DNA of 64,000 bases from a virus. The stretch lies in the IMG/VR virus record IMGVR_UViG_3300026118_000001, positions 1-64,000 of that record; one strand, written 5' to 3'. Position numbers and translations under genes: made by a program. The first letter of the stretch is position 1, and each line of letters begins with the position of its first letter. A model generated the notes under the pieces. It was not told where the DNA came from. It searched no databases and was given only the letters and a program-made list of their open reading frames with translations. Positions 7,921-49,737 of the stretch are shown here, in pieces.

Positions 7921-8775
7921 ATGAAACAAGCTGGAATATATCGAATAACTAATATAAATAATTCTAAAATTTATATAGGTTCTGCACAAAATCTCTCTAA
8001 AAGAAAGACACAACATTTTTCTAATTTAAAACATAATAGACACACAAATAAATATTTGCAAAATTCTTATAATAAACATAAGAGAGGAGTATTTATTTTT
8101 GAAGTTATACAATATGTCAAAAATATAGAAGATTTAATCTTTTATGAACAAAAATGGATTGATTTAACATATTGTTATGATCGTCGATTTGGTTATAATT
8201 TATGTGAAATTGCAGATAGACCTTTTATTGGAAGAACTATTAGTGAAGAACATAAAAGAAAATTGAAAGAATCAAATACTGGTGAAAATCATTATGCTTT
8301 TGGTGGTCATTTTACAGAAGAGCATAAAAACAGTTTAAAAGAGGCTAGAAAAAGTCAAATTATGACTAATAATAAACCTGTTTTACAATACGGCTTAGAT
8401 AATATGTTTATTAAAGAGTGGAGAACTACTTTAGAACTTGGTAAGTTAGGATTTGATCCTTCTGGTATTAGTGCTTGTTGTAATAACAATAGAAGTAAAA
8501 GTCAAGGATTTAAGTGGAAATTTAAAATCAATAATGAAATTCCTTTAATTTTTAAAGATACTTTTGTAGGAAAACCTAGAACTTATGAAAATACTAGAAA
8601 GAAGACTATAATACAATTAGATTTAAATAATAATTTTATTAGAGAACATGAATCTATAACTAGTGCTGCCATTAATATTAATGGATTAGAAACTTCTATA
8701 TCAAGATGTTTAAGGGGTATTAGAGCTTCATATAAAGAATTTAAATGGAAATATAAAATAATAGAAAAATTATAA
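7921..8775 (+). CDS. free-standing GIY-YIG homing endonuclease with NUMOD DNA-binding repeats
   Basis: GIYRI...YIGSA...R...E...GYN catalytic domain; SEEHKRKL and TEEHKNSL (NUMOD3-like); two LQY...GFKWK repeats (NUMOD1-like). Confidence 0.9.
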   Translation: MKQAGIYRITNINNSKIYIGSAQNLSKRKTQHFSNLKHNRHTNKYLQNSYNKHKRGVFIFEVIQYVKNIEDLIFYEQKWIDLTYCYDRRFGYNLCEIADRPFIGRTISEEHKRKLKESNTGENHYAFGGHFTEEHKNSLKEARKSQIMTNNKPVLQYGLDNMFIKEWRTTLELGKLGFDPSGISACCNNNRSKSQGFKWKFKINNEIPLIFKDTFVGKPRTYENTRKKTIIQLDLNNNFIREHESITSAAININGLETSISRCLRGIRASYKEFKWKYKIIEKL

Positions 8776-15993: not shown

Positions 15994-16545
15994 ATGGAAA
16001 TTAAATTAGAAGATTTTGAAAAACAAAGAAGTAATTTAAAAGCATTTGGTCTTAGATTACTTTCAAGATCTACTATTTTAAAAGATGTAGATTTATTAGT
16101 AGATGATTTAATTCAACAAACATATTTAGATTTTCATAGATATGGTGTAGATAAAATGAAAGATGAAGATCATTTTAAAATGTTTTTAAATTCATGTTTA
16201 AAGACAAATTATTATCAACTATTTGATATTACAAGAAAAAATGCTCAATATACAATGTTTAAAAAATCATTAGTTATTTTTGATGATGATAATGAGGAAG
16301 AAGAAATTCTTCCAGATCATTATAAATGTTATATAGAAAATGAATATTTTGATGAAATTGATGTTTTTAAGAAAGAATTAACTGAAAGAGAAACTTTGAT
16401 ATTAAATTATCTTTTAGAAGGATATTCTCAAAGGGAAATAGCAGAAAAAAGTAATTTATATATAAATATTATATTTAGAAATATTCAAAAAATTAAAGAA
16501 AAATATAAAAACTATGAAAATACAAGTAGTAAAATGTTCAGATGA
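15994..16545 (+). CDS. ECF-type sigma70-like factor
   Basis: Region 2-like DDLIQQTYL and region 4 HTH LTERETLILNYLLEGYSQREIAEK. Confidence 0.7.
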   Translation: MEIKLEDFEKQRSNLKAFGLRLLSRSTILKDVDLLVDDLIQQTYLDFHRYGVDKMKDEDHFKMFLNSCLKTNYYQLFDITRKNAQYTMFKKSLVIFDDDNEEEEILPDHYKCYIENEYFDEIDVFKKELTERETLILNYLLEGYSQREIAEKSNLYINIIFRNIQKIKEKYKNYENTSSKMFR

Positions 16546-17005
16546 AGATGCTTGGTATAAAGATTATGATTTTCCAATTAAAACTAGAGTTGATTCCCTT
16601 AATGGGGAATTAGCTAGAGATTTAAATAATGATTTATTTTATCATTCTAGTGATTGTATAAATGATGAAGAATTTATTGATGATAAACCAACTAAAGATA
16701 GTGTAGGAAAATTATTTTATGAAATAGACTGGGAATTTATAGAAGGAATGGCTAAAAGAATGGCATTGAATAAGAAAAATGGTAAATATGATGTGTTTGG
16801 ATGGAGAGATAAAGGTGTTAATATTCCTGAAATGAATCAAGCTCTTATAAGACATTTAATTGCTATTCTTAAAGGTGAATTATCTGATGATACACAAGAT
16901 TATTCTCATTATTATGCTTTGGCTTGTAATTCTATGTTAATAGTTAATGAATTAGAAAGAAATAGAAAGGATTTGATAAATAAAATCAGAAATATAAAAT
17001 TTTAA
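16514..17005 (+). CDS. dATP/dGTP diphosphohydrolase-like (DUF5664-type) protein
   Basis: KY-x3-W...ALIRHL...D...HYYALACNSML pattern. Confidence 0.6.
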   Translation: MKIQVVKCSDEDAWYKDYDFPIKTRVDSLNGELARDLNNDLFYHSSDCINDEEFIDDKPTKDSVGKLFYEIDWEFIEGMAKRMALNKKNGKYDVFGWRDKGVNIPEMNQALIRHLIAILKGELSDDTQDYSHYYALACNSMLIVNELERNRKDLINKIRNIKF

Positions 17006-17009
17006 TAAA

Positions 17010-17414
17010 ATGTCAAAAGAAAGAAAATTATTAATGCAAAAATTAGTTAAAGAAGAAGCAACTAATTTATTAAAATATGCTAAAAAGAAAGAATTAAATA
17101 ATTTGAATTTTGAAAATTTAGATTCAAATGATAAGGAAAAATGTATTTATGGACAAATTACTGGTGATTGTTTTAATAATAGGGCTAGTACTTTAGTTGT
17201 TAAATGTGCTTCTAGAGTTTATGTATATGATGAAGAAAAAGAAGATATTCTAAAAAATAATAGAATTAATGGAAAGCCAAAATTAGAAGAAAGAAATAGA
17301 TATTTTAGTCCAATAGAAGTTTTTATTTATAATAAAACTAATCAAAATAATGGAAATAATAAAATGTTAGTTGATTATTTAAAAGGAGAAAGAAAAACAC
17401 TAAAATTTAAATAA
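17010..17414 (+). CDS. hypothetical protein
   Basis: 134-aa ORF. Confidence 0.6.
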   Translation: MSKERKLLMQKLVKEEATNLLKYAKKKELNNLNFENLDSNDKEKCIYGQITGDCFNNRASTLVVKCASRVYVYDEEKEDILKNNRINGKPKLEERNRYFSPIEVFIYNKTNQNNGNNKMLVDYLKGERKTLKFK

Positions 17415-18448
17415 TGAAATTAACAAAAAAACAAAAATTAATTTATGATTGGTTAATTTCTAAACCTGGATATTTAAAGAAATCAGCAGATAAACTTTGT
17501 GAAATATCTGATTTATATGGATCTTTAAAAGATCATGAAATAGCTTTAAAAGAAGCTAGAAAAGATAATAAATTTAGTGATAAAGTAATAATAGATAATT
17601 TTAGTAAATCTAATGAATTAGTTATTTTAGATAATATTAAGAAATTTGGAATTGAATATCATCCAAAAGATGTAGCTTTTAAAACTAATGTGTCTAAACA
17701 AAGAAATCAATCAGGAACTTATTTTGTAAGTGGTTGTATTCATGCTCCTTGGCAAAATAAATTAATGTTTGATAGTGTATTAAATTTTCTTAAAAAAGAA
17801 GTTGACTTATATGGTATTATTTTAGCAGGTGATATAATTGATTTAAATTCTCTTAGTTCTCATGATAAAGGTAAAAAACCAATAAAAGGAGTAACTTTAG
17901 ATTGGGAATATTCAGAAGCTAATAAGTTCTTAGATACTTTAGATGATTTAAATATTAAAGGAACTAAGGATTATATATATGGTAATCATGAGGATAGATA
18001 TTTGAGATATATGAAAGATATTGATAATTCTAAATTGGGAAGTGCTTTGCAATCTCCAGAAATAGGTTTAAAACTTAGAGAAAGAGGTTATAATGTATAT
18101 ACTGATTGGAAAAATGATGCTATTAGTTTAGGTGTTCATTTAGATATTAATCATGGTGAATTTCTTAATGTGCATACAGCAAAGAAAACTATAGATACTT
18201 ATAGAAAATCTAATTTATATTTTCATACACATAGGTATCAAGTTTATACAGAAGGTAAAGTTGGGGGATTTAATATGGGTTTTGGAGGTGATATAGATGC
18301 ACCAATATTTGGATTTGCTACTAGAGCTATGAAATTAAGCTGGACTAATTCATGTACATTAGTTCATCTAGATAAAGATGGTATGTTTCATGTTCAACCG
18401 CTAGTTTATGTTAATAACCAATTAATTGTTAATGGTAAAAAATATTAA
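17414..18448 (+). CDS. calcineurin-like metallophosphoesterase
   Basis: GCIH (DxH variant), GDIID, GNHEDR, HG, HTHR. Confidence 0.8.
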   Translation: MKLTKKQKLIYDWLISKPGYLKKSADKLCEISDLYGSLKDHEIALKEARKDNKFSDKVIIDNFSKSNELVILDNIKKFGIEYHPKDVAFKTNVSKQRNQSGTYFVSGCIHAPWQNKLMFDSVLNFLKKEVDLYGIILAGDIIDLNSLSSHDKGKKPIKGVTLDWEYSEANKFLDTLDDLNIKGTKDYIYGNHEDRYLRYMKDIDNSKLGSALQSPEIGLKLRERGYNVYTDWKNDAISLGVHLDINHGEFLNVHTAKKTIDTYRKSNLYFHTHRYQVYTEGKVGGFNMGFGGDIDAPIFGFATRAMKLSWTNSCTLVHLDKDGMFHVQPLVYVNNQLIVNGKKY

Positions 18449-18467
18449 TTTATGAATCAATAAAATT

Positions 18468-18977
18468 ATGATTAAATTATTTAAAAATATGAAAACATTA
18501 AAACTAAGTGATGAAAAAGCACTTGAATTATATAAAAATGCAGATCAATCTTTTAAGTGTCTATTAGAAGAAAATTTTGGTAAAGATTTCTTTAAACCTA
18601 AATTAATTACAGATAAAGTTTTTGATATAGAAACTCTTTGTGAATATTTAAATATTGATGAAGATGAGTTATATATTTTTAAAAAGAATACAAAAGACAA
18701 ACATGAAAGATATATAAATGCTTGTAATATTCTTTCTAAAATAGCTCAAGTTTATAATGAAGGTGTAATATTAGATTGGAAAAATAGTAATATTTATAAA
18801 TATTTACCTTATTTAAGCTTTTCTGATTCTGATGGGGGGGTTGTTGAGTTCTGTACTTGGCGCTATTGTTTGTGTGGGTCTGTTGGTCTTTACTATAAAA
18901 CTAATGAATTATCTAAATCTTCTTATAATAATTTTCAATCAATTTGGGAAGATTATTGGGGAATGAAAGCTAATTAA
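18468..18977 (+). CDS. DGR target protein 1
   Basis: Contains VR1; paralog of 20139..20624 (LDW-x5-YK-x-x-PY); start may be 18489. Confidence 0.9.
   Translation: MIKLFKNMKTLKLSDEKALELYKNADQSFKCLLEENFGKDFFKPKLITDKVFDIETLCEYLNIDEDELYIFKKNTKDKHERYINACNILSKIAQVYNEGVILDWKNSNIYKYLPYLSFSDSDGGVVEFCTWRYCLCGSVGLYYKTNELSKSSYNNFQSIWEDYWGMKAN
18817..18890 (+). repeat. variable repeat VR1
   Basis: 74-nt ungapped match to 19004..19077; 18 of 19 mismatches at TR adenines. Confidence 0.95.
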
Positions 18978-18986
18978 TAATATTAA

Positions 18987-19167
18987 AGTTGGTACAATAA
19001 TTTGCTTTTCTAATTCTAGTGAGAGAGTTGTTGAATTCAATAATTGGAACTATAATTTGAATGAGTCTATTAGTCTTCGCTTATTATATCATATTGTACA
19101 ACTGTGGCTATAGCCAAAAAATAAATAAAACTTAAAACAGCTTTGGTAAATTATTGAAAAAGATGTT
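18987..19167 (+). ncRNA. DGR template RNA 1 (TR1 with structured flanks)
   Basis: Non-coding; stem 18987-99/19092-103 encloses TR1; hairpin 19105-16; stem 19136-67. Confidence 0.7.
19004..19077 (+). repeat. template repeat TR1
   Basis: AAT/AAC-rich non-coding copy of VR1, 22 adenines. Confidence 0.95.
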
Positions 19168-19198
19168 AATAATAAGTAAAAAAGAATAAAATAATTTT

Positions 19199-20149
19199 AT
19201 GAAAAGAGAAGGTTATTTATTTAATAAAATATGTTCAATAGATAATCTTATATTAGCTGAAAAGAAAGCTAGAAGAGGAAAAAGTAAACAAAGTGGTGTA
19301 AAAGAATTTGATTTAGATAGTGAAAATAAATTAATTCATTTACACCATTTATTAGTTAATAAAGAATTTATAACTTCTGAATATAATATATTTAGTTTGT
19401 TTGAAAAGAAAGTAAGAATTATATCAGAATTACCTTATTATCCAGACAGAATTGTGCATCATGCAATTATTAATATTATTGGTGATATATTTATAAAGTC
19501 TTTTACTAAAGATACTTATAGTTGTTTAAAGAATAGAGGTATTCACAAATGTTTGAATAATCTTAATAAAGCTTTAAAAAATAGGGAAGAAACTAAGTAT
19601 TGTTTGAAATTAGATATTAAAAAATATTTTCCTTTAATTAATCATGAGATTTTAAAAGATTTTATTAATAATAAAATTAAAGATGAAAATGTATTACAAT
19701 TATTATATGGAATTATAGATTCAAATAAATTAGGAATTCCTTTAGGAAATTATACTAGTCAATTATTTGGAAATATTTATTCTAACAGTTTACTTCATTA
19801 TTTAAAAGAAGAACTAAAAATTAAACATTTGTTTCTTTATTGTGATGATTTAGTTATTTTAGGGTCTAATAAAGATGAATTAAGAGTTATTTTAAATAAA
19901 ATTAGAATTTATTTAGACATTAATTTAAAACTTAGTCTTTCTAATTATCAAATATTTCCTGTAAAATCTAGAGGAATTGATTTTCTAGGATATGTCAGTT
20001 ATCATGATTGTATTTATTTAAGAAAAAGTATTAAAAATGATTATATTAAAATGATGAAGTATTATCCAAATAAAAAATCTAAAGCCAGTTATAATGGTTG
20101 GTTATTAGCTTGTAATAGTGTAAATTTAAGAAATAAATATGAAAAATGA
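19199..20149 (+). CDS. DGR reverse transcriptase
   Basis: DRIVHH, LKLDIKKYF, GIPLGNYTSQ (DGR-type SQ motif), YCDD, IDFLGY; 316 aa, no maturase or endonuclease domain. Confidence 0.95.
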   Translation: MKREGYLFNKICSIDNLILAEKKARRGKSKQSGVKEFDLDSENKLIHLHHLLVNKEFITSEYNIFSLFEKKVRIISELPYYPDRIVHHAIINIIGDIFIKSFTKDTYSCLKNRGIHKCLNNLNKALKNREETKYCLKLDIKKYFPLINHEILKDFINNKIKDENVLQLLYGIIDSNKLGIPLGNYTSQLFGNIYSNSLLHYLKEELKIKHLFLYCDDLVILGSNKDELRVILNKIRIYLDINLKLSLSNYQIFPVKSRGIDFLGYVSYHDCIYLRKSIKNDYIKMMKYYPNKKSKASYNGWLLACNSVNLRNKYEK

Positions 20150-20624
20150 TAATATAATTGAAATGCTTGAATCAAATGATAAAGACTGTGTTTATTTGGC
20201 TGTTTCAATGATTAGAAATTATTCTACATTACTATCTGTTGAAACTAAAAAATCTTTAAATAAAGTTTCTTTATTTGATAGAATTAAAAATTATTCAGAT
20301 GTTTGTAAAGATTTGGAGGAGGATGAATTAAAACTTTCTAATTTTAATTTTCTTTCAAAAGATTATAGAAAGAAAGCTTTTAATCAAGCTAAATTGCAAC
20401 AAATACAAAAATTATTTAATGGTGATTGGAAATTAGATTGGTCAGATATAACTCAATATAAATGGTTTCCTTATTTTGAAATAAAGGTTTCTGGTGGTAT
20501 TGGCTTTTATGTTTCTTATTTTCATACTTCTACTTTCGGTGATGCTCCTGCCTATTTTAAAGATGAAGAAACTTCAAATTTTGTAGGAAAATTATTTATA
20601 GATATTTATAAAGAATTAATGTAA
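20139..20624 (+). CDS. DGR target protein 2
   Basis: Contains VR2; overlaps the RT stop; paralog of target 1. Confidence 0.9.
   Translation: MKNDNIIEMLESNDKDCVYLAVSMIRNYSTLLSVETKKSLNKVSLFDRIKNYSDVCKDLEEDELKLSNFNFLSKDYRKKAFNQAKLQQIQKLFNGDWKLDWSDITQYKWFPYFEIKVSGGIGFYVSYFHTSTFGDAPAYFKDEETSNFVGKLFIDIYKELM
20487..20553 (+). repeat. variable repeat VR2
   Basis: 67-nt ungapped match to 20652..20718; all 14 mismatches at TR adenines. Confidence 0.95.
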
Positions 20625-20633
20625 TATTAATAA

Positions 20634-20811
20634 GGTTGAATATTAAATTTAGTTTCTAGTAGTATTAGCTTTAATGATTCTAATTATCATAATTCTAATT
20701 TCAATGATGAACCTACCTCTTACTTAATAATCATAATATTAACCGTAGCTATTGCTAAAAAATTAAATAATTTAAAAACTATATTAGTACCTTTATTGTG
20801 GAAAGTTTGGT
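20634..20811 (+). ncRNA. DGR template RNA 2 (TR2 with structured flanks)
   Basis: Stem 20634-45/20734-44 encloses TR2; hairpin 20746-57; stem 20778-811; same layout as template RNA 1. Confidence 0.7.
20652..20718 (+). repeat. template repeat TR2
   Basis: AAT-rich non-coding copy of VR2, 21 adenines. Confidence 0.95.
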
Positions 20812-21002
20812 AATTAAAGTAATATTAAAACATTAGCTTCTAGGCCAGAAGATCGAAACTCTTGAAACGCTTAATTATTAAAACGTACCAGTTTATCATG
20901 GAAATTGATAGAACGTAAGTAATAATATTTCAACTAGAACGTTAGCTAGACTGTTTATGGTTATCAGTGAGTAAAACCATTTATAATTAAATAATAAATA
21001 TA

Positions 21003-21233: not shown

Positions 21234-21591
21234 AATATTATGTTTATTGTGTGATGATTTAATTCAAAGTAAACATGGACATGATATGCAATGGTGTAAT
21301 TGTCATTCTGTTGCTACTGATGGTGGATTGAATTATTTAAAAAGAAGTGGAGAATCATATAATTATATTGATGCTTCTATTTATTCTGATGACCATTTAA
21401 TAATTAGAGAATATTTAATCTGGGGAGTTAATTATGATAAAAATATGAATAGATTACCTGATACAATATTTAAACCAATTATGGAGTTGGAATCAGATCA
21501 TATTCAAGCAATATTAGCTACTCAAACTCATATTTCAGAATTATATAAAACTACTTTTGAAAAAGAATTAAAATATAGAAATGGAAAATAA
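21208..21591 (+). CDS. zinc-binding phage protein
   Basis: CLLC...S-x-H-x-HD...C-x-C...DGG-x-x-Y-x-x-R. Confidence 0.7.
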   Translation: MKKQLIANRILCLLCDDLIQSKHGHDMQWCNCHSVATDGGLNYLKRSGESYNYIDASIYSDDHLIIREYLIWGVNYDKNMNRLPDTIFKPIMELESDHIQAILATQTHISELYKTTFEKELKYRNGK

Positions 21592-22708
21592 TGATTCAGT
21601 TTGCTTTATAGCAAAAATCAATAAAATATCTTCAATTGAAAATGCTGATAAAATAGAATTAGCTACATTAAATGGATGGACATCAATAGTTCAAAAGAAT
21701 ATACATAAAGAAGGAGATTTAGTTTTATGTATAACTACGGATGCTGTAATTAGTCAAGATTTATGTGATAAATGGGGAATAATAAGTTATCTTAGGAAAG
21801 GTAATAGAGTTAGAACAGTTAAATTAAAAGGTGTTTATAGTGAATGTATTTTAATTCCTTTATTTGATTTACCGTTTATATCAACTATTAGATATAAAGA
21901 AGGTGAAGATTTAATGGAAAAATTAAAAATATTTAAATATGAACCTCCAGTAATTGTGACTCAAGACTCTAAAGGAAGGAAACATAAATATCATCAAAAT
22001 CCTAATTTTCATATTTATTACAAATTTCCTAATCAAAAGAATGTTCCTAATATGTTTAATGAAGATGATGATGTTGTAATAACTAGAAAAATACATGGTA
22101 CAAATGCCAGATACGGTATAGTTAAAAAATCTAAATTAACTATTCTAGATAGAATTAAGAAATTCTTTGGTAATAAATGGATTGAATATGAGTATATTTA
22201 TGGCTCTCACAATGTAGAAAAGGGTTCAGATTCTCAAGGATTTTATTCTACAGATGTTTGGAAGGAAATAGCTGATAAATATGATATTAAGAATAAACTT
22301 TGGTTTCTAGTTAAAAACTGTCCCGAGTTTAAAGGAGGAATTACTATTTATGGAGAAATTTATGGAGAAGGAATTCAAGGAGAAAAATATTCTTATGGAT
22401 TAAAAACTAAAGAACTTAAAATATTTGATATTGAACTTAATTCATTATATGTAGATCATTTTAGTTTTTGTGCTTTAAATCATGGTTATTTAAATTCATT
22501 ACCAATGGTAGAAGAACTTTATATAGGTAAATGGAATAAAGAAATTCAGAATGCTTTTGTAAATAATCAATTTATAGAAGGAACTAAAATTCCACATGAA
22601 GGAATAATTTGCAAGCATATTTCTGGAAATAGACAAAAGATTTCAAAAGTAATTAATCCAGATTATTTAATATTTGGAGAAAAACATTTAGTACCAGATT
22701 CACATTAA
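21581..22708 (+). CDS. RNA ligase (Rnl2 / DRB0094-like)
   Basis: N-terminal IENADKIE OB-like domain; motif I RKIHGTN, YGEIYG, IFDI, HEGII, KVINPDY. Confidence 0.88.
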   Translation: MENNDSVCFIAKINKISSIENADKIELATLNGWTSIVQKNIHKEGDLVLCITTDAVISQDLCDKWGIISYLRKGNRVRTVKLKGVYSECILIPLFDLPFISTIRYKEGEDLMEKLKIFKYEPPVIVTQDSKGRKHKYHQNPNFHIYYKFPNQKNVPNMFNEDDDVVITRKIHGTNARYGIVKKSKLTILDRIKKFFGNKWIEYEYIYGSHNVEKGSDSQGFYSTDVWKEIADKYDIKNKLWFLVKNCPEFKGGITIYGEIYGEGIQGEKYSYGLKTKELKIFDIELNSLYVDHFSFCALNHGYLNSLPMVEELYIGKWNKEIQNAFVNNQFIEGTKIPHEGIICKHISGNRQKISKVINPDYLIFGEKHLVPDSH

Positions 22709-22709
22709 C

Positions 22710-23231
22710 ATGAAAGAAATAATAATATGTATAGGAATTAGTGGTTCAGGTAAATCAACTTGGACTACTAATTTTATTAAAGAAAATTCTAATTATTTAA
22801 GAATTAATCGTGACTCAATCAGATTAACTTTAGTTGGTAATTTAGATGGTTATTATCAGAGAAAAGATTTAAATTATATTGAAAGAGATGTAACTAGACT
22901 AGAAGATGAGTTTTATAAACATTTAAGTTTAAGTGGATTTAATATAATTATTGATAATACTAATTTAACTGAAAAATATATTAATAGATGGATTAATTTA
23001 TCCAATTGTTTAAAATTAGATGCTAGAATTAATTTAAAATTTAAATTATTTGATATAACATTAGAAGAAGCTAAAGAGAATGTTATTAATAGAGAAGACT
23101 ATTATACTCCAGCATTAACTCCTCATTACAAATATCATCAAGATAAGGTTGAATATATTGATAAACAATTTGAGCAATATAAACAAATAAAAAAGTTTAT
23201 TGAAGAAAATTATAAAGATAAAATAATATGA
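22710..23231 (+). CDS. polynucleotide kinase (P-loop, AAA_33)
   Basis: GISGSGKST, INRDSIR, IIDNTN as in the T4 Pnk kinase domain. Confidence 0.85.
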   Translation: MKEIIICIGISGSGKSTWTTNFIKENSNYLRINRDSIRLTLVGNLDGYYQRKDLNYIERDVTRLEDEFYKHLSLSGFNIIIDNTNLTEKYINRWINLSNCLKLDARINLKFKLFDITLEEAKENVINREDYYTPALTPHYKYHQDKVEYIDKQFEQYKQIKKFIEENYKDKII

Positions 23232-23863
23232 AAAATATATTTTTTACTTCAGATACTCATTTTCATCATAAAAATATAGTTAGAGGAACAACTGAATGGA
23301 TAGCTCAAGAGGAAGGTTCTAATCATGGAATTCAATCTTTAAGATATTTTAATACTTTGGAGGAACATGATGAAGCATTGATTAAATCTATTAATTCTAT
23401 AGTTAAATATGATGATGTATTATATCATTTGGGTGATTGGAGCTTTGGTGGACATGAACAAATTAAAAAGTTTAGAGATAGACTAGAATGTAGAGAGATA
23501 CATTTAATATTTGGAAATCATGACCAACATATAGAACCTATTTCTAGTCCTTATAGAGAATGTTTCAATTCAACTCAATATTATTTAGAATTAGATATGA
23601 AAATTGATTCTCAAAAGTCTGGTAAATATGTAAAAACTAATATAGTTTTATCTCATTATTCTCATCAAGTTTGGAATAAATCTCATAAAGGAGCAATTCA
23701 TTTGTTTGGGCATTCTCATGGAAGTTTAAAAGGTATTGGTAAATCAATGGATGTTGGAGTTGATACTAATAATTTATATCCTTATCATTTAGATGAAATA
23801 TTAGATATTATGAAGAATGTAAAAACTGAAATTGTAGATCATCACAGTTCAAATACAAATTAA
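23228..23863 (+). CDS. calcineurin-like phosphoesterase
   Basis: SDTHFHH, LGD, GNHD, SHY, GHSH, DVGVD. Confidence 0.88.
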   Translation: MKNIFFTSDTHFHHKNIVRGTTEWIAQEEGSNHGIQSLRYFNTLEEHDEALIKSINSIVKYDDVLYHLGDWSFGGHEQIKKFRDRLECREIHLIFGNHDQHIEPISSPYRECFNSTQYYLELDMKIDSQKSGKYVKTNIVLSHYSHQVWNKSHKGAIHLFGHSHGSLKGIGKSMDVGVDTNNLYPYHLDEILDIMKNVKTEIVDHHSSNTN

Positions 23864-24090
23864 TGTCAAGAAGTAAACGTAAACCCATAATTAAAGAAAA
23901 ACCCAGAAATAGAAAAGCTTCTACTTATTATAGAAGAGTTAGAAGAGTTATTAATCAAGCAGTTAAATCATTTAAAGAGATTATTCCTGAATCAAGAGAA
24001 ATAGTTAATGATTATGATTATTGTGATTATACTTTTGGTAAAGATGGATTTAAAGATGAAGAAGATAAAATAAAGTATTCTAGGAAATGA
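23863..24090 (+). CDS. small basic protein
   Basis: MSRSKRKP...; coupled on both sides. Confidence 0.55.
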   Translation: MSRSKRKPIIKEKPRNRKASTYYRRVRRVINQAVKSFKEIIPESREIVNDYDYCDYTFGKDGFKDEEDKIKYSRK

Positions 24091-24338
24091 ATAGAAAATA
24101 TAAACCTATTTTACAATATGATTTAAAAGGAAATTTTATTAAAGAATGGACTAATGTAGAAGAAATTGTATTAAATTTTAAAACTGTAAGACAAAATTTT
24201 TCAAAATGTTTAAATAATAAACAAAGAACTGCTGAAGGTTTTAAATGGAAATATAAGTGGAAAAAGATAAAATTAAATATTCAAGAAAATGAAAGTAATA
24301 AAATATCCAGATGGACAAGTAAATGTTCAAATAAGTGA
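24087..24338 (+). CDS. stand-alone NUMOD1-like DNA-binding domain (homing endonuclease remnant?)
   Basis: KPILQYDLKGNFIKEW...AEGFKWKYK matches the repeats in 7921..8775; no nuclease domain. Confidence 0.7.
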   Translation: MNRKYKPILQYDLKGNFIKEWTNVEEIVLNFKTVRQNFSKCLNNKQRTAEGFKWKYKWKKIKLNIQENESNKISRWTSKCSNK

Positions 24339-25056
24339 TGTTGAATCAAAAATATCTATGAGAATAAATTCTTATGAAGATTTATTTGTATTAAAAGCAA
24401 TAAAAGAAATATCTGATTATACAAATCATTTAAAATATAAAGAATTATTTATTCCTTGTTTATTTGGTCAGAGATCTGATAGAAGATTTAGTGAAAATGA
24501 ATCATTTGGATTAAAAATTATATGTGATTTTATTAATTCAATGAATTTTAATAGAGTTAAAATCTTTGATCCTCATAGTGACGTAAGTTTGGCATTAATT
24601 AATAATTCAGAAAAGATTAGTTCATTTAGTTATGTTAAGGATTCTATATTTTATATTAAAAATTCATTTTTAAACTGTAAAACAGATGATTTAATTTTAG
24701 TTAGTCCTGATGCTGGAGCTTATAAGAAGGTATTTAAATATGCAGAAGATTTAAATTTACCTTTAGTTGCAGCTAATAAATTTAGGAATTTGAAGGGTGA
24801 AGTTACACTTAATATATTAGGTGATGTTAAAGGTAAGAATTGTTTAATAGTTGATGATATTTTAGATGGAGGTTATACTTTTCATTTATTAGCTAAACAA
24901 CTTAAAGAACAAGGTGCAATTAAAGTTTTTCTTTATATCTCTCATGCTTATTTTAATAAAGGAATAGATTTCACTGAACATATAGATAGTTTTTATTGTA
25001 CTAATTCAGTGAAGGATATAGATGATCTTAAAGTAACACAATTTAAAATAATATAA
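24289..25056 (+). CDS. prs: ribose-phosphate pyrophosphokinase-like protein (possible ADPR-PP synthetase)
   Basis: YPDG, RSDRRF, DPHS, VSPDAGA, LIVDDILDGGYT, SH. Confidence 0.88.
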   Translation: MKVIKYPDGQVNVQISDVESKISMRINSYEDLFVLKAIKEISDYTNHLKYKELFIPCLFGQRSDRRFSENESFGLKIICDFINSMNFNRVKIFDPHSDVSLALINNSEKISSFSYVKDSIFYIKNSFLNCKTDDLILVSPDAGAYKKVFKYAEDLNLPLVAANKFRNLKGEVTLNILGDVKGKNCLIVDDILDGGYTFHLLAKQLKEQGAIKVFLYISHAYFNKGIDFTEHIDSFYCTNSVKDIDDLKVTQFKII

Positions 25057-25469
25057 TGGATGAATATTTAGTAGAAGGAAAATCATATGAAAGATTATAT
25101 GATGAATATAAGAGATATGGCAGTTTATATGGAGCTTTTGATTTTGATGGTACAATACATGATTATCATAAAACAGGGGCTTCATATGAATTAGTAAAAC
25201 AATTGATTAGAGATTTATATTCTATTAATTGTAAATTAGATTGTTGGATAGCTTATATAGATCATAGTTATGTTATTTCTTTTTTAAAAGAACATAATAT
25301 ACCTTATGAAAAAATTAATAGTGATGGAATACCATTATCTTGGACAAGTAGAAAACCTTTTCATTCATTTTTATTAGATGATAGAGCAGGTTTAATTCAA
25401 GTATATAATGATTTAAAAAAATTAATACAAACAGTAAAAAATGAAAATAAATCCAATAATACTTTGTGA
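25056..25469 (+). CDS. HAD-family phosphatase-like protein
   Basis: FDFDGTI motif I, KP, LLDDRAG motif IV. Confidence 0.7.
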   Translation: MDEYLVEGKSYERLYDEYKRYGSLYGAFDFDGTIHDYHKTGASYELVKQLIRDLYSINCKLDCWIAYIDHSYVISFLKEHNIPYEKINSDGIPLSWTSRKPFHSFLLDDRAGLIQVYNDLKKLIQTVKNENKSNNTL

Positions 25470-26922
25470 TGGTTACAAGGTTGGACATAAAAAAATGTAT
25501 CCAAAAGGTACAACATTAGTATATAGTAATTATACTTGTAGAACTGTTAAAAGAATGCCAGTTGAAGCCGAAGATATAGTTGTATTTGGAACTCAATATA
25601 TGATTAAATATATTAATGATGTATTTAAAAATGATTTTTTTGGTGTTTCTAAAGAAATTGTTTGTGGAGAAGCTAAAGAATATTTAACTAATTATTTAGG
25701 AAGTGAATATGATGTTTCTCATTTTGAAGCTTTACATGATTTAGGTTATTTACCTATTGAAATTAAAGCTTTAGAAGAAGGAACTATCATACAAGCAGGT
25801 ATTCCATTATTTACAATTAAAAATACATTACCAGAGTTTTTCTGGGTAACAAATTATTTGGAAACTTTAATTTCTACTTTAATTTGGAAACCAGTTCATT
25901 CAGCAAGTTTAGCTTATGGTTATAAAAAACTATTAACTAAATATGCTTTAGAAACTGATAAAGATAATATAGGGTTTGTTGATTTTCAAGGTCATGATTT
26001 TAGCTTTAGAGGAATGCAATCTCCTGAATCAGCAATTAGTTCAGCAATGGGCTTTTTAACTAGTTTTAAAGGTACAGATACAGTTCCAGCATTACAAGCT
26101 TTAAGTTATTATTATAAAGAAAATAATACAGCTTTTAGTGTTCCAGCTAGTGAACATTCAGTAATGTGTTCTCATGGTAAAGAGGGAGAGATAAATACAT
26201 TAGAATATTTAATGGATCAATATCCAAAAGGTATTTTAAGTGTTGTTTCTGATACTTGGGATTTGTGGAAACTTTTAACTGAATATTTACCTAAATTGAA
26301 AGATAGAATTATGTCTAGAGATGGTAAATTAGTAATTAGACCTGATTCTGGAGATCCTGTTGATATTATTTGTGGAATTAATACAAGAAAAGATCCTGAT
26401 AATAGATATGGTAAATTAAAAGACACACCTGAATATAAAGGTGTAATTGAATTACTTTGGGATATTTTTGGTGGAACTATAAATGAACAAAGATATAAAG
26501 TCTTAGATAGTCATATAGGAGCTATTTATGGTGATTCAATTACTTTAGAGAGGGCTCAACAGATTTGTGAAAGACTTAAAGCTAAAGGATTTGCTAGTAC
26601 TAACATTGTTTTAGGTATTGGTAGTTATTCAATGGGATATGCAACTAGAGATAATCAAGGAGGAGCTGTTAAGTCTACTTATGTAGAAGTTAATGGTGAA
26701 GCTAGAGAAATCTTTAAAGATCCAATAACTGATGATGGGACTAAAAAGTCTGCTAAAGGCTTGTTGAGAGTAAATATGAACGGTGATTATTCTTTATATT
26801 TAAAAGATCAATGTTCTTGGAAAGAAGAAGTTGGTGGTGGATTAACTACTATTTATAAAGATGGAGTATTAATCAAAGAAGTTACTTTATCTGAAATAAG
26901 AGAAAGAATAATAAAAGGTTGA
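25441..26922 (+). CDS. nadV: nicotinamide phosphoribosyltransferase-like protein
   Basis: DGYKVGH, HDFSFRG, GTDT, ASEHSVM, SVVSDTWD, IRPDSGDP, YGDSIT, KDPITD..KKSAKG. Confidence 0.92.
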   Translation: MKINPIILCDGYKVGHKKMYPKGTTLVYSNYTCRTVKRMPVEAEDIVVFGTQYMIKYINDVFKNDFFGVSKEIVCGEAKEYLTNYLGSEYDVSHFEALHDLGYLPIEIKALEEGTIIQAGIPLFTIKNTLPEFFWVTNYLETLISTLIWKPVHSASLAYGYKKLLTKYALETDKDNIGFVDFQGHDFSFRGMQSPESAISSAMGFLTSFKGTDTVPALQALSYYYKENNTAFSVPASEHSVMCSHGKEGEINTLEYLMDQYPKGILSVVSDTWDLWKLLTEYLPKLKDRIMSRDGKLVIRPDSGDPVDIICGINTRKDPDNRYGKLKDTPEYKGVIELLWDIFGGTINEQRYKVLDSHIGAIYGDSITLERAQQICERLKAKGFASTNIVLGIGSYSMGYATRDNQGGAVKSTYVEVNGEAREIFKDPITDDGTKKSAKGLLRVNMNGDYSLYLKDQCSWKEEVGGGLTTIYKDGVLIKEVTLSEIRERIIKG

Positions 26923-30155: not shown

Positions 30156-33100
30156 TTATTTACACTTTTTTTCTATTAATTTTCCTAAACTTTCATCATC
30201 ATGAACTTCATTAAGTTCTTTTAAAAGTTCTTCTTTTAATTGTGGTTGAAATTCAAATAAAAATTCAATATCTGATTTTAGTTCATTGTATTGTTCTTTT
30301 GATAATTCAAATTTCTCTCCAATATTAGTTATTTTCTCTTGTATTGGCAACTTATTTTCTTCTTTATTTATTTCATTGGATAAATAGATATTTCTAGCTT
30401 CTTCATTCCAAATTCCATTAGTTTGATTATAAGCATTAAACATTTTAATCATTTTAGATGATGTTAAAATAGCTACATTCTTATCATCTAATTTTTTAAT
30501 AATATTCCATGCTTTTAATGCTCTTTCTCTAAATTGTTTAAATGACTCAGCTTTTGGATTTATTTTTTCTTCTTCATTAATTGGATTAGACCATAACTTT
30601 TCATCATATTCATTCTCTTTAACTTCACCTTCCCAATTACCCATATTCATAGTTTTTAGATTTTCATCTGTATAATATGGAATATTTTGTTCTTTTTTAA
30701 TAATTTCTGCTGTTTGAATCACTCTTTCAATTGGAGAAGTAATTAATGATGTAATTCCTTGTATTTTTAATTCTTTTCCTAAATTAGAAGCTTGTTCTTT
30801 TCCTTCTTTAGTGAGATTTGTATCAGATTGTCCATTAATCACATCTTTAGATGAGGGAACATCTTCTCCATGTTCAAATACTATTAAATTACCAACTTTT
30901 ACTGGTTCTACTTTTGGTGATATGTTTTCTATAGTTATTTTTAATGGAGTTGTAATAGGAATATATTTAACATTAAATCCTTTTGTAGCTTTATTTACAT
31001 CATAGTCTTTACCATACATTCCATTACCCAAAGCAGAAAGTTGTAGATTTTTAAATATAGTTGGTACAATTTTATTGTTATTTCTAATAAATAGTTCATT
31101 AAATTTTGGTAGTATTTCTGCCCCATTTTTTTTATTAAATTCTTCAAATGAGTCTTTAACTAATTGATTATAATATTCAAATGGAATAATTCCTAAATAA
31201 GTTATAGGAGAATTATTAAGTCCTGATTGTAATATTCCAACATGAATTAATTCATTTCCTAATGATAAATTAGAATTCTTTAGTTCTCTAAATGCTTCTG
31301 TTAATTGATTAGATGTAAATGTATCTAATTTTTTAGTAAATATTTTAACATTGTCATAATTTAAAGCTGCTTTATCAATTAATGGAAATAATTCTTTAAT
31401 TAGAATATTATTTCTTAATTGCTTTTCATCTTCATTTAAATTTTCTTCTTTTTTATTCTTTAATTCTAATAGTTTCTTAGCAACTGAATTTTCTCCTTCA
31501 AATAATCTCTTTCTAATAGCATTAATATTCTTATATCCATAGTTTTGAATTACAAAATTAATAAAATCATTTTCAATTAGATTAATCATTTTTAATTTCT
31601 CTTTTCTTGATGATTTAAATGGATTTTCTAATTCATTGGCAAGACCTAATATATTATTGATTATTTCTTCTTTTTGTGTGTCATAGAACTGTTTATATGA
31701 AGATATAGCAAATTCATCTTGTTGAAATGATTTAATAAATGTCTTATTAATAATTTCATTAACACCATTAATAAAATTGGTTTTTTGTACTTTATTTATT
31801 TCTTCTAATTTAAGTCTTGAACTATTAATATTTTGACCTAATCCAGCAGTATCAGAATTAGTAACTCTAACAGCATCATTAAATAAACTAGCTTGTTCTT
31901 TATATTTTAAGAAATCATTAAATACTTGTAATTGAAATAATTCAAATTCTTTAGTAGATTGATTCTCAATTAATTTAAAATCTTTTAATTCTTTTAAAGA
32001 AAGTATTTTATTTTCAATATCCTTTTCAGAAACTAAATTAGAATATTTTTTCTTTATTTGTTTAGTTATTTCTGTATTTCTTTGATTCTTTCCTGTAGAT
32101 TTTAAAAATATAGATTTATTCTTATTAATTTCTTCTATATAATCTAAAATAATAGGTTGAGTCATGAAATTAGCAATGTGTTCAAACGGAACTCCTAATT
32201 TATTCAAATATAAATAAATAGGAAGTGTATCCATAGTCATGTTTAAATAACTTACCATTGGAATTTCATCTTTAGCAGCATCCACAATAATATTAATTAA
32301 CTGATTGTTAATTTCAGATATATTATGATTATTTTCTGCGTCTTTTAAAGCTCCTAAATTAAAAACATCTCTAATTTCATTGTGAATTAAATTAATATTC
32401 ACTTTAATTTCTTCTCCAGCAGCATTAATATAAGATTTATTAGCTGTTAGTCCAGATAATTGAGAAAGTGGCCCATAAGCATTAGCAATAGCAGATAAAC
32501 CTACTTCATCTTTAGCAAGCCATAATTTATATCTAGCATTTATTTTATTTTGTAATTTTAATAAGGCTGTATAATTAATCTTTTTATCTTTTGAATTTTG
32601 AGCTTCAAAATATTCTTCTTTAGTTAATATTTTTTTAGGTTCTCTTCCTTTAGAAATTAATTCATTATTAGCTTCTGTTTTATCATTTAAATAATCAATA
32701 TATTTAATATCATCAACTATTGGTGATATAATACTTGTTGAATTGGGTGTTATTAGTGATATAAAGTTATGAGGATTAGAAATAAAATCTTTGATTACTT
32801 GTATTGTTTTATTATCAATATTATCTTCAATATAATTACCATTTTCATCTAAATTTGGTCTATAAGTATATAATTTGTCATTGTCAAAGTCAGATCCAGC
32901 TTTAGCAACTATATCAGGATGAACTATCATAGTAGTAGCTGCATCTTCTGGTAGAAACTCTTTAATAGTTAAATATTCATTGGAATTCATTCCTTGTCCT
33001 GGAATACGACATCCAACTAATTCTAATACTTTATTAGGTATATCTCCATTTTTAATAGCTTCATTAACTGCTTTTAAACTACCAAATTTCTTTAATAATG

Positions 33101-48551: not shown

Positions 48552-49286
48552 TTAAATATTTAAATTTTCTCTTCTTGGCATATTTCTAAAATTTTTAGAA
48601 TATTCCCTACGCATAGGCATTAACCTAGTCATAATACTTGTAAGATTTTCTAATTGTGCTGTATTAGGCATATTACCACTACCTCTAGCACTATTAACAT
48701 AAAATAACCAATTTGCTTCTGAAGCATCTTTAACTTTATCTGTTATTTTTCCTTTTCTCCATTCTCTATAATCAATCATATGAATTATAAAAGATTCAAT
48801 TGCTTTCTGATAATATATATCATCTGGGATCATTGGAAATCCATCTTCATCTAAATGTATTCCTAAATAATTAATACAAACACTTTTATCTTCATCTGGT
48901 AGATTACTATCAATTCCATTATTAATATTTGTTATTAAATAACTATCATTTAAATAAAATGTATTACCACAATTATCTCCTTTACAAATAGGAACTTGAC
49001 ATGAATGACAAGCATAATTATTTGCTGCACTTTGACTAGCCCAATATAAAGGTTGTTGTTTATAATTAATATCAATTAGTTTATGAAAACCACATGGTAA
49101 TTTAGCTTTTCCATTAGCTAATGTAATACAATCAGTTATTTCATCATATTGGCCATATACTCCAATTAACTCTAATGCTTCTGCTGCAAACTCAACCATA
49201 TCATTAACAGGTATTTCATAGTTTATATCTAAACTGCGATATACTTTAGCTATTATTCTATTGATACTAATATATCCACTTATCAT
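48552..49286 (-). CDS. tail tubular / ring protein (P22 gp4-like)
   Basis: EALELIG...LPC...DEDGFPMIPD; crAss-type order IHF, tubular, stabilisation. Confidence 0.65.
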   Translation of the reverse strand: MISGYISINRIIAKVYRSLDINYEIPVNDMVEFAAEALELIGVYGQYDEITDCITLANGKAKLPCGFHKLIDINYKQQPLYWASQSAANNYACHSCQVPICKGDNCGNTFYLNDSYLITNINNGIDSNLPDEDKSVCINYLGIHLDEDGFPMIPDDIYYQKAIESFIIHMIDYREWRKGKITDKVKDASEANWLFYVNSARGSGNMPNTAQLENLTSIMTRLMPMRREYSKNFRNMPRRENLNI

Positions 49287-49287
49287 T

Positions 49288-49737
49288 TTATTTAAGTTTA
49301 AAAAAATCTACTTTTTTAATATTTATTGCTGGAGCAATTGTTCTTTTAGCTTTTCTACAAGGAATAAATTTATATCTTGTTTTGCCTATTATAATTGCAT
49401 TCCTCTTATTCCAATACCATTGATATGTATATTTCTGGTCAAAATATATTACAAATCCATTTTCTTTTGTTCTTTTATAATCAACAGCCCAATATTTCTT
49501 TTGTTTATTATAAGACATTTCATTTTTAATTATTTGTAACATTCCCAATCTATAAGGAATTTCAAATTCATTAGAATTATTAACTACTTGATCTAATATT
49601 TCTAAATTACATTCTTTAATTATTTTGGAATATTCTTTATAAGAAATTGGTTTTTCTTTATGTTTAGCTTTATAATAATTGTAAAAATCTCTTAAATTAA
49701 TATCACTTGGCTTTTTTCCTTTTGTTCTCTTTCTCAT
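49288..49737 (-). CDS. IHF/HU-like DNA-binding protein
   Basis: Basic; FEIPYRLGMLQI...YKFIPCRKAKR; position typical of crAss-like phages. Confidence 0.65.
   Translation of the reverse strand: MRKRTKGKKPSDINLRDFYNYYKAKHKEKPISYKEYSKIIKECNLEILDQVVNNSNEFEIPYRLGMLQIIKNEMSYNKQKKYWAVDYKRTKENGFVIYFDQKYTYQWYWNKRNAIIIGKTRYKFIPCRKAKRTIAPAINIKKVDFFKLK

Follow-up and report, generated by a model that had tools for sequence, protein, structure and literature searches.

The textbook target of a diversity-generating retroelement (DGR) is the Mtd protein of Bordetella phage BPP-1, in which, as in the system described here, a dedicated reverse transcriptase (RT) serves adenine-specific rewriting from a template repeat (TR) to a target, with AAY-rich codons. 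Mtd is described as a 381-aa trimeric tail-fibre tip protein whose lectin fold carries the variable repeat (VR) at its extreme C-terminus (PMC10743442), whereas the VRs of the present system are internal and are followed by two conserved helices. All DGR variable proteins of solved structure have been assigned to the C-type lectin fold, and so have all the VR domains annotated in the largest survey (PMC8144416).

Non-structural targets had been regarded as atypical in a sequence-only reading of this DNA. Most characterised phage DGR targets are indeed receptor-binding proteins, but small non-structural targets are not unprecedented, and have been published for Quimbyvirus, Shimadzu, Toutatis, and nd4/nd12 (Benler 2021, PMC8008677; Cornuault 2019, bioRxiv 10.1101/575076; Baykov 2023, PMC10743442; Egorov 2024, bioRxiv 10.1101/2024.10.15.618418). 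The second target of Quimbyvirus (“Quimbyviridae”) resembles those described here in being encoded at a distance from the virion genes and on the opposite strand, beside counter-defence-type genes including a tRNA/RNA ligase, and its authors likewise proposed a role in phage–host conflict for the non-structural target (PMC8008677). As described there, the Quimbyvirus target contains a C-type lectin domain and its DGR, which has a single template, also serves a structural target, whereas the present system has no structural target, two templates, and no detected lectin likeness. The gut-phage proteins nd4_tgt2/nd12_tgt2, the second target of FP_Toutatis, and Shimadzu orf43 are, like the present targets, small proteins of a single domain flanked by helices, whose VR lies on a surface β-hairpin and is actively diversified, as shown by reads in Shimadzu (bioRxiv 10.1101/575076). 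The domain of nd4/nd12 tgt2 and FP_Toutatis is reported as the lectin-type DUF6273, and the nd4/nd12 tgt2 proteins have 234–294 aa (PMC10743442; bioRxiv 10.1101/2024.10.15.618418), whereas the present proteins have 161–169 aa and no DUF6273 match. Moreover, in the published accounts of nd4/nd12, FP_Toutatis, and Shimadzu, a tail or tentaclin target draws on the same template as the second target, whereas each of the present targets has its own template and the two are the sole targets.

Also close are the DGRs of crAss-like phages (LMMB, the Epsilon and Zeta groups, and cr52_1; PMC7290462, PMC11054128, PMC12386605, PMC10136315), which belong to the same phage order and have a related RT; identity to the RT described here is 44–49% for the gut phages LMMB (published as DGR-encoding) and cr52_1 (TR/VR pair checked). 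Several TR–VR pairs are also reported in Lera (PMC12386605). The crAss-like DGR targets described in these reports are all encoded in the virion block and are tail-fibre or receptor-binding proteins that end in a lectin domain (checked for cr52_1 gp18), whereas the present targets belong to a different family and are encoded in the replication arm.

A retroelement with two target cassettes

The DGR is carried by an 89.7-kb genome (100% complete, with terminal repeats) from rhizosphere (soil) metagenomes, of which the window analysed here comprises 64,000 nucleotides. The phage is distantly crAss-like and lytic-looking, and carries the Crassvirales hallmarks of a major head protein (phrog_11589, E 1.6e-105, 36% identical to cr10_1), a muzzle protein (PF25731, E 1.2e-131), and ring proteins 1, 2, and 3/4. 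In the window the genome has two arms, a + arm (1–27 kb) and a − arm (27–64 kb). The virion genes and the neighbours of the DGR are as follows.

17414–18448, phosphoesterase, DGR neighbour
21581–22708, RNA ligase, DGR neighbour
22710–23231, AAA_33 kinase, DGR neighbour
23228–23863, weak Metallophos match, DGR neighbour
24289–25056, PRPP-synthetase-like, DGR neighbour
25441–26922, NAMPT, DGR neighbour
44423–48550, − strand, muzzle protein
48552–49286, 49737–50441, and 59477–60166, − strand, ring proteins
61112–62566, − strand, major head protein

The targets lie on the + strand and the virion genes on the − strand, as had been proposed, and the neighbours are those originally noted: a phosphoesterase, RNA repair (RNA ligase), and NAD genes (NAMPT). 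A distance of more than 30 kb from the tail-fibre genes had also been claimed; the targets lie 24–39 kb from the named virion genes (muzzle, ring, and head), which checks the 30-kb figure only roughly. The gene position by itself is compatible with a virion role. A sigma-70 promoter scan returned 47 sites against 44.5 expected, and 0 terminators.

A single RT resides between two cassettes, in each of which a small target gene precedes a template repeat of its own.

18468–18977, + strand, target gene 1 (T1) of the T1-type clade, encoding a small, acidic, soluble protein of 169 aa (ORF; family profile E 1.6e-29, T1 itself being a row of that alignment)
18817–18890, + strand, VR1, variable repeat of T1, codons 117–141, 74 nt, with mismatches to TR1
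19004–19077, + strand, TR1, template repeat for VR1, non-coding, rich in AAT codons in the VR frame
19100–19183, + strand, structured-RNA candidate after TR1, RT-17-like (RF03020, 22.4 bits, E 0.45)
19199–20149, + strand, DGR reverse transcriptase, 316 aa (PF00078, E 1.8e-15; phrog_1423, E 1.6e-94)
20139–20624, + strand, target gene 2 (T2), encoding a small, acidic, soluble protein of 161 aa near the family consensus (ORF; 18 relatives)
20486–20557, + strand, VR2, variable repeat of T2, codons 116–140, 72 nt, with mismatches to TR2
20651–20722, + strand, TR2, template repeat for VR2, non-coding
20741–20819, + strand, structured-RNA candidate after TR2, RT-17-like (RF03020, 25.7 bits, E 0.068)

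The RT translation contains LGNYTSQ and YCDD, which fit the DGR-type patterns GxxxSQ and YxDD, and the SQ motif has been described as a mark of DGR-type RTs (PMC11054128). VR1 differs from TR1 at 19 of 74 nt, 18 of these mismatches falling at a template A and one at a G, with four template A left unchanged. VR2 differs from TR2 at 17 of 72 nt, 16 at a template A and one elsewhere, and within a stricter 67-nt core all 14 mismatches are at A. The variable positions alternate along the strand, as N-x-N-x-N in the TR. VR1 ends 28 codons and VR2 about 22–23 codons before the stop codon, in line with the 23–28 codons first claimed, and both repeats are thus internal rather than at the extreme end. 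Adenine-specific TR/VR pairs, an adjacent DGR-type RT, and the natural diversification described below identify the system as a DGR.

The accessory gene avd, carried by many but not all DGRs, was sought with PF05635, which gave no match at E ≤ 1 in the complete genome; this does not bar the system from the DGRs, because an Avd gene is reported in just 2 of 18 Zeta crAss-like DGR cassettes, those of Lera and ct1yV3 (PMC12386605). When both TRs were scanned against both strands of the whole genome, only VR1 and VR2 matched, and hence no tail or virion gene is diversified.

The stretch after TR1 is 74% identical to 20741–20779 after TR2. Both structured-RNA candidates score below the gathering score of RF03020 (Rfam RT-17; 40.4 bits), as do matches in five related loci (30.2–39.4 bits). 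All matches span the full model and lie directly 3' of a TR, except for one in L002 (217–310), which is located just upstream of the RT in a sequence that, as available, contains no TR. Given this extent and placement, the RNA is likely a distant relative of RT-17. Single-sequence folding of the two post-TR RNAs was not better than that of shuffles (z −0.69 and +0.92).

The target family and its predicted scaffold

T1 and T2 are, as had been stated, small paralogs (25% identity over 142 residues by BLASTP, E 5e-8) encoded away from the virion arm, and the family profile finds just these two members in the complete genome. Both match phrog_11581 (T1, E 0.0051; T2, E 2.3e-10), to which PHROG assigns no function. 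The proposed shared motif, D-K/R-V/I..C..L..DE...LDW-x5-YK-x-x-PY ... Y/F-K ... F..I-W/Y, is visible in the T1/T2 alignments. The proteins are acidic (pI 5.6 for T1 and 5.5 for T2; GRAVY −0.48 and −0.46) and, with a top 19-residue hydropathy of 0.9, look soluble, so that the claimed lack of signal and transmembrane segments agrees with a simple hydropathy measure (rather than a dedicated signal-peptide predictor). A match of T1 to the Pfam family GP3_package (E 0.0035, below the cut-off) was discarded as noise.

T1 and T2 are members of a phage-restricted family of small, acidic, soluble proteins that is large and has no name. A family profile search recovered 2,901 metagenome clusters (at 50% identity) at E ≤ 1e-3, 1,282 at ≤ 1e-10, and 73 at ≤ 1e-30. 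The family has no sequence match in Pfam, NCBIfam, or the PDB, where the profile search gave chance-level rows only (E ≥ 0.074); a pattern scan of 185,579 prokaryote genomes found no member, and tblastn of T2, T1, and P0011 against 50,697 deposited phage records gave no match. The neighbouring clusters in the ESM Atlas are 60–92% viral, and no named cluster there stood above 0.78. A profile search brought up only one distant member there, gp91 of the gut phage cr52_1, a non-diversified protein encoded in a block of small non-virion genes; the DGR of cr52_1 rewrites the lectin-type tail protein gp18, not gp91.

Twelve independent loci were compared for gene context. Seven of the 12 have a related RT (52–60% identity) adjacent, and nine have a TR/VR pair with A bias, among them L006, L011, and L013, which contain no RT within the sequence available. 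The T1-type copies of seven loci (one row per locus) form one clade with support 88/94, and each of these loci also carries a T2-type copy; the same tree does not unite the T2-type sequences in a clade. Among eight fused two-domain proteins, six have one domain of T1 type and the other of T2 type, the typing margin being below 3 bits in four of the eight. On these comparisons, T1 and T2 are an anciently duplicated paralog pair.

AlphaFold2 models of T1 (residues 43–169; pLDDT 89.1, pTM 0.84) and T2 (pLDDT 85.2, pTM 0.81) consist of a helical scaffold with the VR on a β-hairpin and loop, which is the least confident part of both (pLDDT 68–79 in T1 and 56–69 in T2). The rewritten codons are predicted to lie on the second strand of the hairpin and the following loop, and the VR is predicted to lie between an aromatic-rich conserved motif (W..D/N-W...Q.K-Y/W-Y-P-Y-F) and two conserved C-terminal helices.

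A minimal C-type lectin fold had been suggested for these proteins. Structure prediction and fold search give this suggestion no backing: neither Foldseek nor a scan of 48,161 PDB chains matched the two confident models to a lectin or any other solved fold, and T1 and T2 have no match to the lectin-type Pfam families DUF6273, FGE-sulfatase, and DUF1566 at E ≤ 0.01. For 150 members, no lectin-type family occurs among the matches listed at E ≤ 0.1 (25 of 101 families), and hhalign of the family with the lectin domain of cr52_1 gp18, represented by the stretch after the second of two in-frame stops in that gene, gave a probability of 0.2%. In addition, lectin-fold DGR variable proteins such as Mtd, TvpA, and TaqVP have the VR at the C-terminal end of the domain or directly beside it, whereas here two conserved helices follow the VR. 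It is quite unlikely, in our assessment, that the scaffold is nevertheless a very divergent, stripped-down C-type lectin fold missed by the searches. An absent fold match is no proof of a new or different fold, and such a relationship would agree with the expectation of Roux et al. 2021 (PMC8144416) that uncharacterised VR domains are new lectin-fold variants, and with the report of Baykov et al. (PMC10743442) that the VR of DUF6273 lectin domains is a surface β-hairpin, the element that carries the VR in the present models. The modelled scaffold is without detectable likeness to the C-type lectin fold and is apparently non-lectin.

Natural variation at both sites

Natural variation was followed in contigs. 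The relative L001 is 97% identical; against it, VR1 shows 13 differences in 74 nt (11 at template-A positions) and VR2 7 in 72 nt, while TR1 and TR2 show one each and the RT 21 in 951. Three of the VR2 differences are at non-adenine positions, a sign that decay or ordinary mutation also contributes. Among six strain variants of T1, 12 columns vary within the VR against 5 of 144 outside it; among eight of T2, the counts are 12 and 6 of 137. In each protein, 11 of the 12 variable VR columns stand over A-bearing template codons. In two other sequencing runs, contigs break inside VR1 (X3) and inside VR2 (X4), and a further run (X2) yielded only short pieces less than 90% alike. As near-identical strains differ mainly at template-A codons, both DGR sites are active, and both targets are being diversified in nature.

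Diversification could be real and yet of little adaptive value, the DGR being a semi-selfish cassette that homes into dispensable small genes and leaves variation largely unselected. The non-adenine changes in VR2 of L001 and the lack of a nearby RT in some related loci would fit such a scenario, as would the published account of Shimadzu, in which VR2 alleles show little dominance and the gene was judged less essential by the authors (bioRxiv 10.1101/575076); as reported there, the non-structural second target is seemingly under weaker selection than the tail target. Such targets may matter less than supposed. We nevertheless consider the scenario highly improbable. VR codons with a template A vary at 11 of 17 sites in T2 and 11 of 14 in T1, against 1 of 8 and 1 of 11 without A, and the VR scaffold residues G122, F123, S131, F133, and P137 of T2 are invariant in all eight variants. 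The regions flanking the VR are strongly conserved over 150 cluster representatives, the T1/T2 pair has been kept across seven diverged loci, and the family is very large.

Possible roles of the two targets

By analogy with BPP-1, T1 and T2 would be virion-associated accessories for receptor binding or adhesion, such as fibre-docking tips or decoration proteins, which are encoded outside the structural arm by chance and diversified for host range. Nearly all characterised phage DGR targets are described as receptor-binding proteins (PMC8144416, PMC10743442, PMC12386605), and small stand-alone second targets are taken as likely receptor binders by Baykov et al. (PMC10743442) and Egorov et al. 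(bioRxiv 10.1101/2024.10.15.618418). In deposited phages, the DGRs with the closest RTs act on tail proteins, such as cr52_1 gp18, and the alternation of variable positions on the strand is like that of a displayed binding face. Gene context argues against a virion role, as the genes are in the replication arm and on its strand, 24–39 kb from the tail genes, and this placement recurs in relatives: of 26 neighbour proteins scanned, 18 match a PHROG, 16 of them with a named function, and all 16 are replication, nucleotide, or auxiliary proteins, with no head or tail protein among them. Family members have 124–194 aa and no docking domain, no lectin or fibre-like domain is seen, and a search for longer fused forms (339–2000 aa) found none, which is weak evidence. 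Furthermore, phi14:2 gives no family match, and crAss001 only a marginal one (E 0.003, N-terminal helices only), to gp100 of its non-virion block. In our assessment, a virion-accessory function is rather unlikely.

We give roughly even credence to the overall reading that this is an active DGR in a complete crAss-like phage whose sole targets, T1 and T2 of a phage-restricted family, act as intracellular evolvable binders. Given the position and neighbours of the genes, T1 and T2 are plausibly such binders, directed against host defence or serving takeover. One RT serves both cassettes, and its adenine-specific rewriting alters about a dozen codons per target. T1 and T2 would be made in the infected cell alongside the products of replication, RNA-repair, and NAD-salvage genes. 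There they may act as a pair of evolvable binders, perhaps as a putative heteromer, whose ligand would be some host factor that varies, most likely one involved in defence or targeted for takeover, so that the phage population would always contain variants fitting whichever host strain is met. The fused two-domain relatives would predict such a heteromer, its two variable regions lying next to each other. The sequence-only reading holds insofar as T1 and T2 are paralogs, small and soluble, that are encoded apart from the virion genes, are the sole targets, and are diversified, while the intracellular anti-defence or takeover role that it proposed continues to draw on gene position and neighbours. 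A more ambitious version, in which lytic crAss-like phages use a second natural, non-lectin scaffold for DGR-scale hypervariation as an intracellular, heteromeric pair of binders that is continuously randomised anew and directed against variable proteins of host defence, providing an “adaptive” counter-defence without a virion role, is unlikely on present evidence.

New in this system are the family to which the targets belong, a scaffold that is apparently not of the lectin type, and the absence of any structural target. The family represents a sizeable blind spot in current annotation, with its thousands of metagenome clusters set against none of the deposited phage genomes by BLAST and one distant profile match in cr52_1. 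A compact and mostly helical scaffold, confidently modelled and tolerant of about a dozen randomised positions, would stand beside the C-type lectin fold as a second way to accommodate such variation, of interest for both DGR biology and binder engineering. That a lytic phage directs its mutator solely at proteins whose genes adjoin those for replication, RNA repair, and NAD salvage suggests a use of hypervariation after entry as well, in an intracellular arms race.

The DGR cassette and the genome that carries it

The window takes in the opening 64 kb of a complete phage genome of 89,726 bp. The genome has a G+C content of 25.3%, its ends share a 99-bp terminal overlap, and its completeness, with direct terminal repeats, is rated at 100%. 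The phage is a distant crAss-like phage, whose major head protein matches phrog_11589 (E 1.6e-105) with approximately 36% identity to gut crAss-like phages, and whose virion arm yields Pfam matches to the Crassvirus muzzle protein and ring proteins 1, 2, and 3/4. Rhizosphere metagenomes contain contigs near-identical to the phage, among them those of runs X3 and X4, and the phage may itself come from a further run, X1. The + strand arm (1-27 kb) encodes ligase, helicase, primase, and Sak4, followed by auxiliary genes, and the - strand arm (27-64 kb) contains the virion protein genes, among them a single ORF of 3,500 aa (window 30156-40658, - strand); giant virion RNA polymerase proteins occur in crAss-like phages. 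Homing endonuclease genes of the GIY-YIG/HNH and LAGLIDADG types are dispersed through the replication arm (window 7921-8775; related locus L022, 3957-4793), and a 163-aa protein (window 16514-17005) matches PF18909, the dATP/dGTP diphosphohydrolase N-terminal domain (E 8.7e-8), which hints at nucleotide-pool manipulation or DNA modification.

The DGR lies in the + arm, with the reverse transcriptase (RT) flanked by the two target genes; a separate non-coding template repeat (TR) lies 3' of each target gene.

Features of the DGR cassette (window coordinates)
18468-18977, +, target gene T1, 169 aa
18817-18890, variable repeat VR1 (74 nt; 19 mismatches to TR1, 18 at template A)
19004-19077, template repeat TR1
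19100-19183, RT-17-like segment
19199-20149, +, reverse transcriptase, 316 aa (PF00078, E 1.8e-15; phrog_1423, E 1.6e-94)
20139-20624, +, target gene T2, 161 aa
20486-20557, variable repeat VR2 (72 nt; 16 mismatches to TR2 at A, 1 elsewhere)
20651-20722, template repeat TR2
20741-20819, RT-17-like segment

In the 67-nt core of VR2/TR2, all 14 mismatches fall at A. In the reading frame of the targets, AAT codons are abundant in both templates, at every other position. The sequence-only reading had described the targets as small paralogs with internal VRs and no signal or TM segments, and this description was borne out: T1 and T2 share 25% identity (E 5e-8) and the motifs that it listed, both are acidic and hydrophilic and lack any hydrophobic stretch, and the VRs end 28 (VR1) and about 22-23 (VR2) codons before the stop rather than at the extreme C-terminus. 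Their location in the replication/auxiliary arm, on the strand opposite to the virion genes, and their proximity to phosphoesterase, RNA ligase, and NAMPT genes also proved correct. In L001, an otherwise 97%-identical relative, unrelated sequence (1918-2590) takes the place of the stretch that precedes T1 (window 17684-18469), which comprises the last part of the phosphoesterase gene and the spacer; this marks a mosaic junction at the cassette edge.

Each template has, within about 20-25 nt on its 3' side, a match to Rfam RT-17 that spans the full model but stays below threshold, scoring 22-26 bits in the window and 30-39 bits at five loci of relatives (L002 217-310 and 1814-1909; L004 6476-6560; L005 4953-5037; L012 785-870; L013 2812-2901), against a gathering score of 40.4. 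Single-sequence folds of these segments are no better than those of shuffled sequences. The segment is probably an RNA element of this DGR clade that recruits the RT. No Avd-type gene (PF05635) was found in the complete genome; in the accessible text of PMC12386605, only two Zeta crAss-like DGR cassettes have an Avd gene.

Activity of the cassette and its only targets

Both diversification sites are active. The window and L001 disagree at 13 of the 74 nt of VR1, 11 being template-A positions, and at 7 of the 72 nt of VR2 (4 at A, 3 at T), with a single difference in each of TR1 and TR2 and 21/951 in the RT. Among strain variants of at least 90% identity in the protein collection, T2 (n=8) shows 12 variable columns within the VR vs 6/137 outside, and T1 (n=6) shows 12 vs 5/144; in each protein, 11 of the 12 lie over A-bearing template codons. 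The scaffold residues of the VRs are invariant among these variants, and a cassette running free of selection is very improbable. Contigs end inside VR1 (run X3) and inside VR2 (run X4), and as the data are contigs, these ends indicate fragmentation and not haplotype counts.

T1 and T2 are the only DGR targets in the genome. When each template was run against both strands of the complete genome, with unrestricted change at A and a tolerance of up to 6 changes elsewhere, VR1 and VR2 were the sole matches, and the family profile detects two members, T1 and T2.

The target family and its relatives

The 18 relatives recovered by a word-indexed search are 129-193 aa long and carry no Pfam domain. 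An exhaustive profile search recovered 2,901 clusters (50% identity) at E<=1e-3, of which 1,282 reach <=1e-10 and 73 reach <=1e-30; the majority of the clusters are 124-194 aa in length. At least 8 two-domain fusions occur among the 150 family matches listed; one domain scores as T1-type and the other as T2-type in 6/8, with a margin below 3 bits in 4/8. A search for forms longer than 339 aa found none, which is weak evidence of their absence. The family has no sequence match in Pfam, NCBIfam, or the PDB, and the only family entry that it matches is phrog_11581 (unknown function). No relative was detected by tblastn against 50,697 deposited phage genomes, nor any member by a pattern scan of 185,579 prokaryote genomes, and the Atlas clusters neighbouring the family are viral for the most part. 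Across 150 representatives, the flanks conserve Y-S-D-V-C, N-G-x-W-x-x-D/N-W, Q-x-K-Y/W-Y-P-Y-F, and Y-K-D-E-E-T-S-x-F-V-G-K-x-F-x-D-I-Y, and the columns over A-bearing template codons exceed 3 bits of entropy, with Y, S, G, C, and D dominant. The family is a new, very large, apparently non-lectin family of small non-virion proteins; a lectin fold hidden in the scaffold, whatever the role of the proteins, is unlikely.

Twelve independent loci were compared (L002-L007 and L010-L015; 3 are contigs of <=1.4 kb), with L001 and L009, a near-identical relative, set apart. An RT (52-60% identical) adjoins the target in 7 of these loci, and an A-biased TR/VR pair is present in 9, with two pairs each in L003, L004, L005, and L012. 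A tree of 22 family ORFs groups the T1-type copies from 7 loci into one clade (support 88/94); each of these loci also has a T2-type copy, and the tree does not resolve the T2-type rows. The replication-arm context is conserved: 18 of 26 neighbouring proteins match a PHROG, 16 of these with a named function (DNA polymerase, helicases, primase, Sak4, homing/HNH endonucleases, ribonucleotide reductase, phosphoesterases, and endonuclease VII), and none of these 16 is a head or tail protein. tmRNA is also encoded in phages with the family (RF00023, 59 bits, L006 5825-6248; 36.7 bits, below the 47-bit threshold, L005 3363-3750; annotated in cr52_1, NC_055888.1 81171-81551).

The closest RTs among deposited phages (44-49% identity) belong to gut crAss-like phages. 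In one of these, cr52_1, the RT instead adjoins the tail protein gp18 (annotated 'similar to sulfatase, major tropism determinant'), where a TR/VR pair is located. The T1/T2 family has a distant, non-diversified member in cr52_1, gp91 (134 aa, E 1.7e-7), encoded within a block of small hypothetical genes that is distant from the RT and has no TR/VR close by. The scaffold thus occurs in Crassvirales as an ordinary small protein of a non-virion block, and it has become a DGR target in some lineages. Under table 11, the gp18 gene (L008 3495-4736) is interrupted by two in-frame stops, which fits stop-codon recoding by cr52_1. Papers on crAss-like DGRs describe, in their accessible portions, tail or receptor-binding targets only (PMC11054128, PMC12386605, PMC10136315, PMC7290462).

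Proposed function and published comparisons

With two templates and one RT, the DGR mutates the paralogs T1 and T2 at adenines, in about a dozen codons each, and nothing else in the genome. Just downstream lies an auxiliary island (window 21581-26922) encoding RNA ligase, a PNK-like AAA_33 kinase, a phosphoesterase, a PRPP-synthetase homologue, a 137-aa ORF without a family, and NAMPT (phrog_448, E 1.9e-184), which looks like RNA repair and NAD salvage. T4 Pnk/Rnl and phage NAD-reconstitution pathways answer anticodon nucleases and NAD-depleting defences. T1 and T2 would be made together with the replication-arm genes and would stay inside the cell, as an evolvable binder pair whose position beside RNA-repair and NAD genes would fit counter-defence or takeover; that they are such intracellular binders is an evenly balanced proposal, and a virion or receptor role is the less likely alternative. 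The sequence-only reading had suggested the same role: its observation stood, and its interpretation is supported in part, by the non-virion placement and the sole-target status, and not in the lectin fold that it had raised for checking.

Non-structural phage DGR targets are already in print: a second target of Quimbyvirus, which lies in a defence island (PMC8008677), Shimadzu orf43, diversified according to reads (bioRxiv 10.1101/575076), nd4 and nd12 tgt2 (PMC10743442), and the FP_Toutatis second target (bioRxiv 10.1101/2024.10.15.618418). These targets have a lectin-type domain where one is described (DUF6273 in nd4/nd12 tgt2 and Toutatis), and each of them uses a single template together with a structural target, whereas T1/T2 are apparently non-lectin, have their own templates, and are the sole targets. 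Full-text searches of the literature outside subscription journals and the target-cluster tables of Roux et al. 2021 yielded no description of the T1/T2 family or of a non-lectin DGR scaffold. The DGR is real and active, and it targets solely small non-virion proteins of a new, very large, apparently non-lectin family. Relative to print, the novelty lies in the family targeted, in its apparently non-lectin scaffold, and in the lack of a structural target; the function of the family is now testable.
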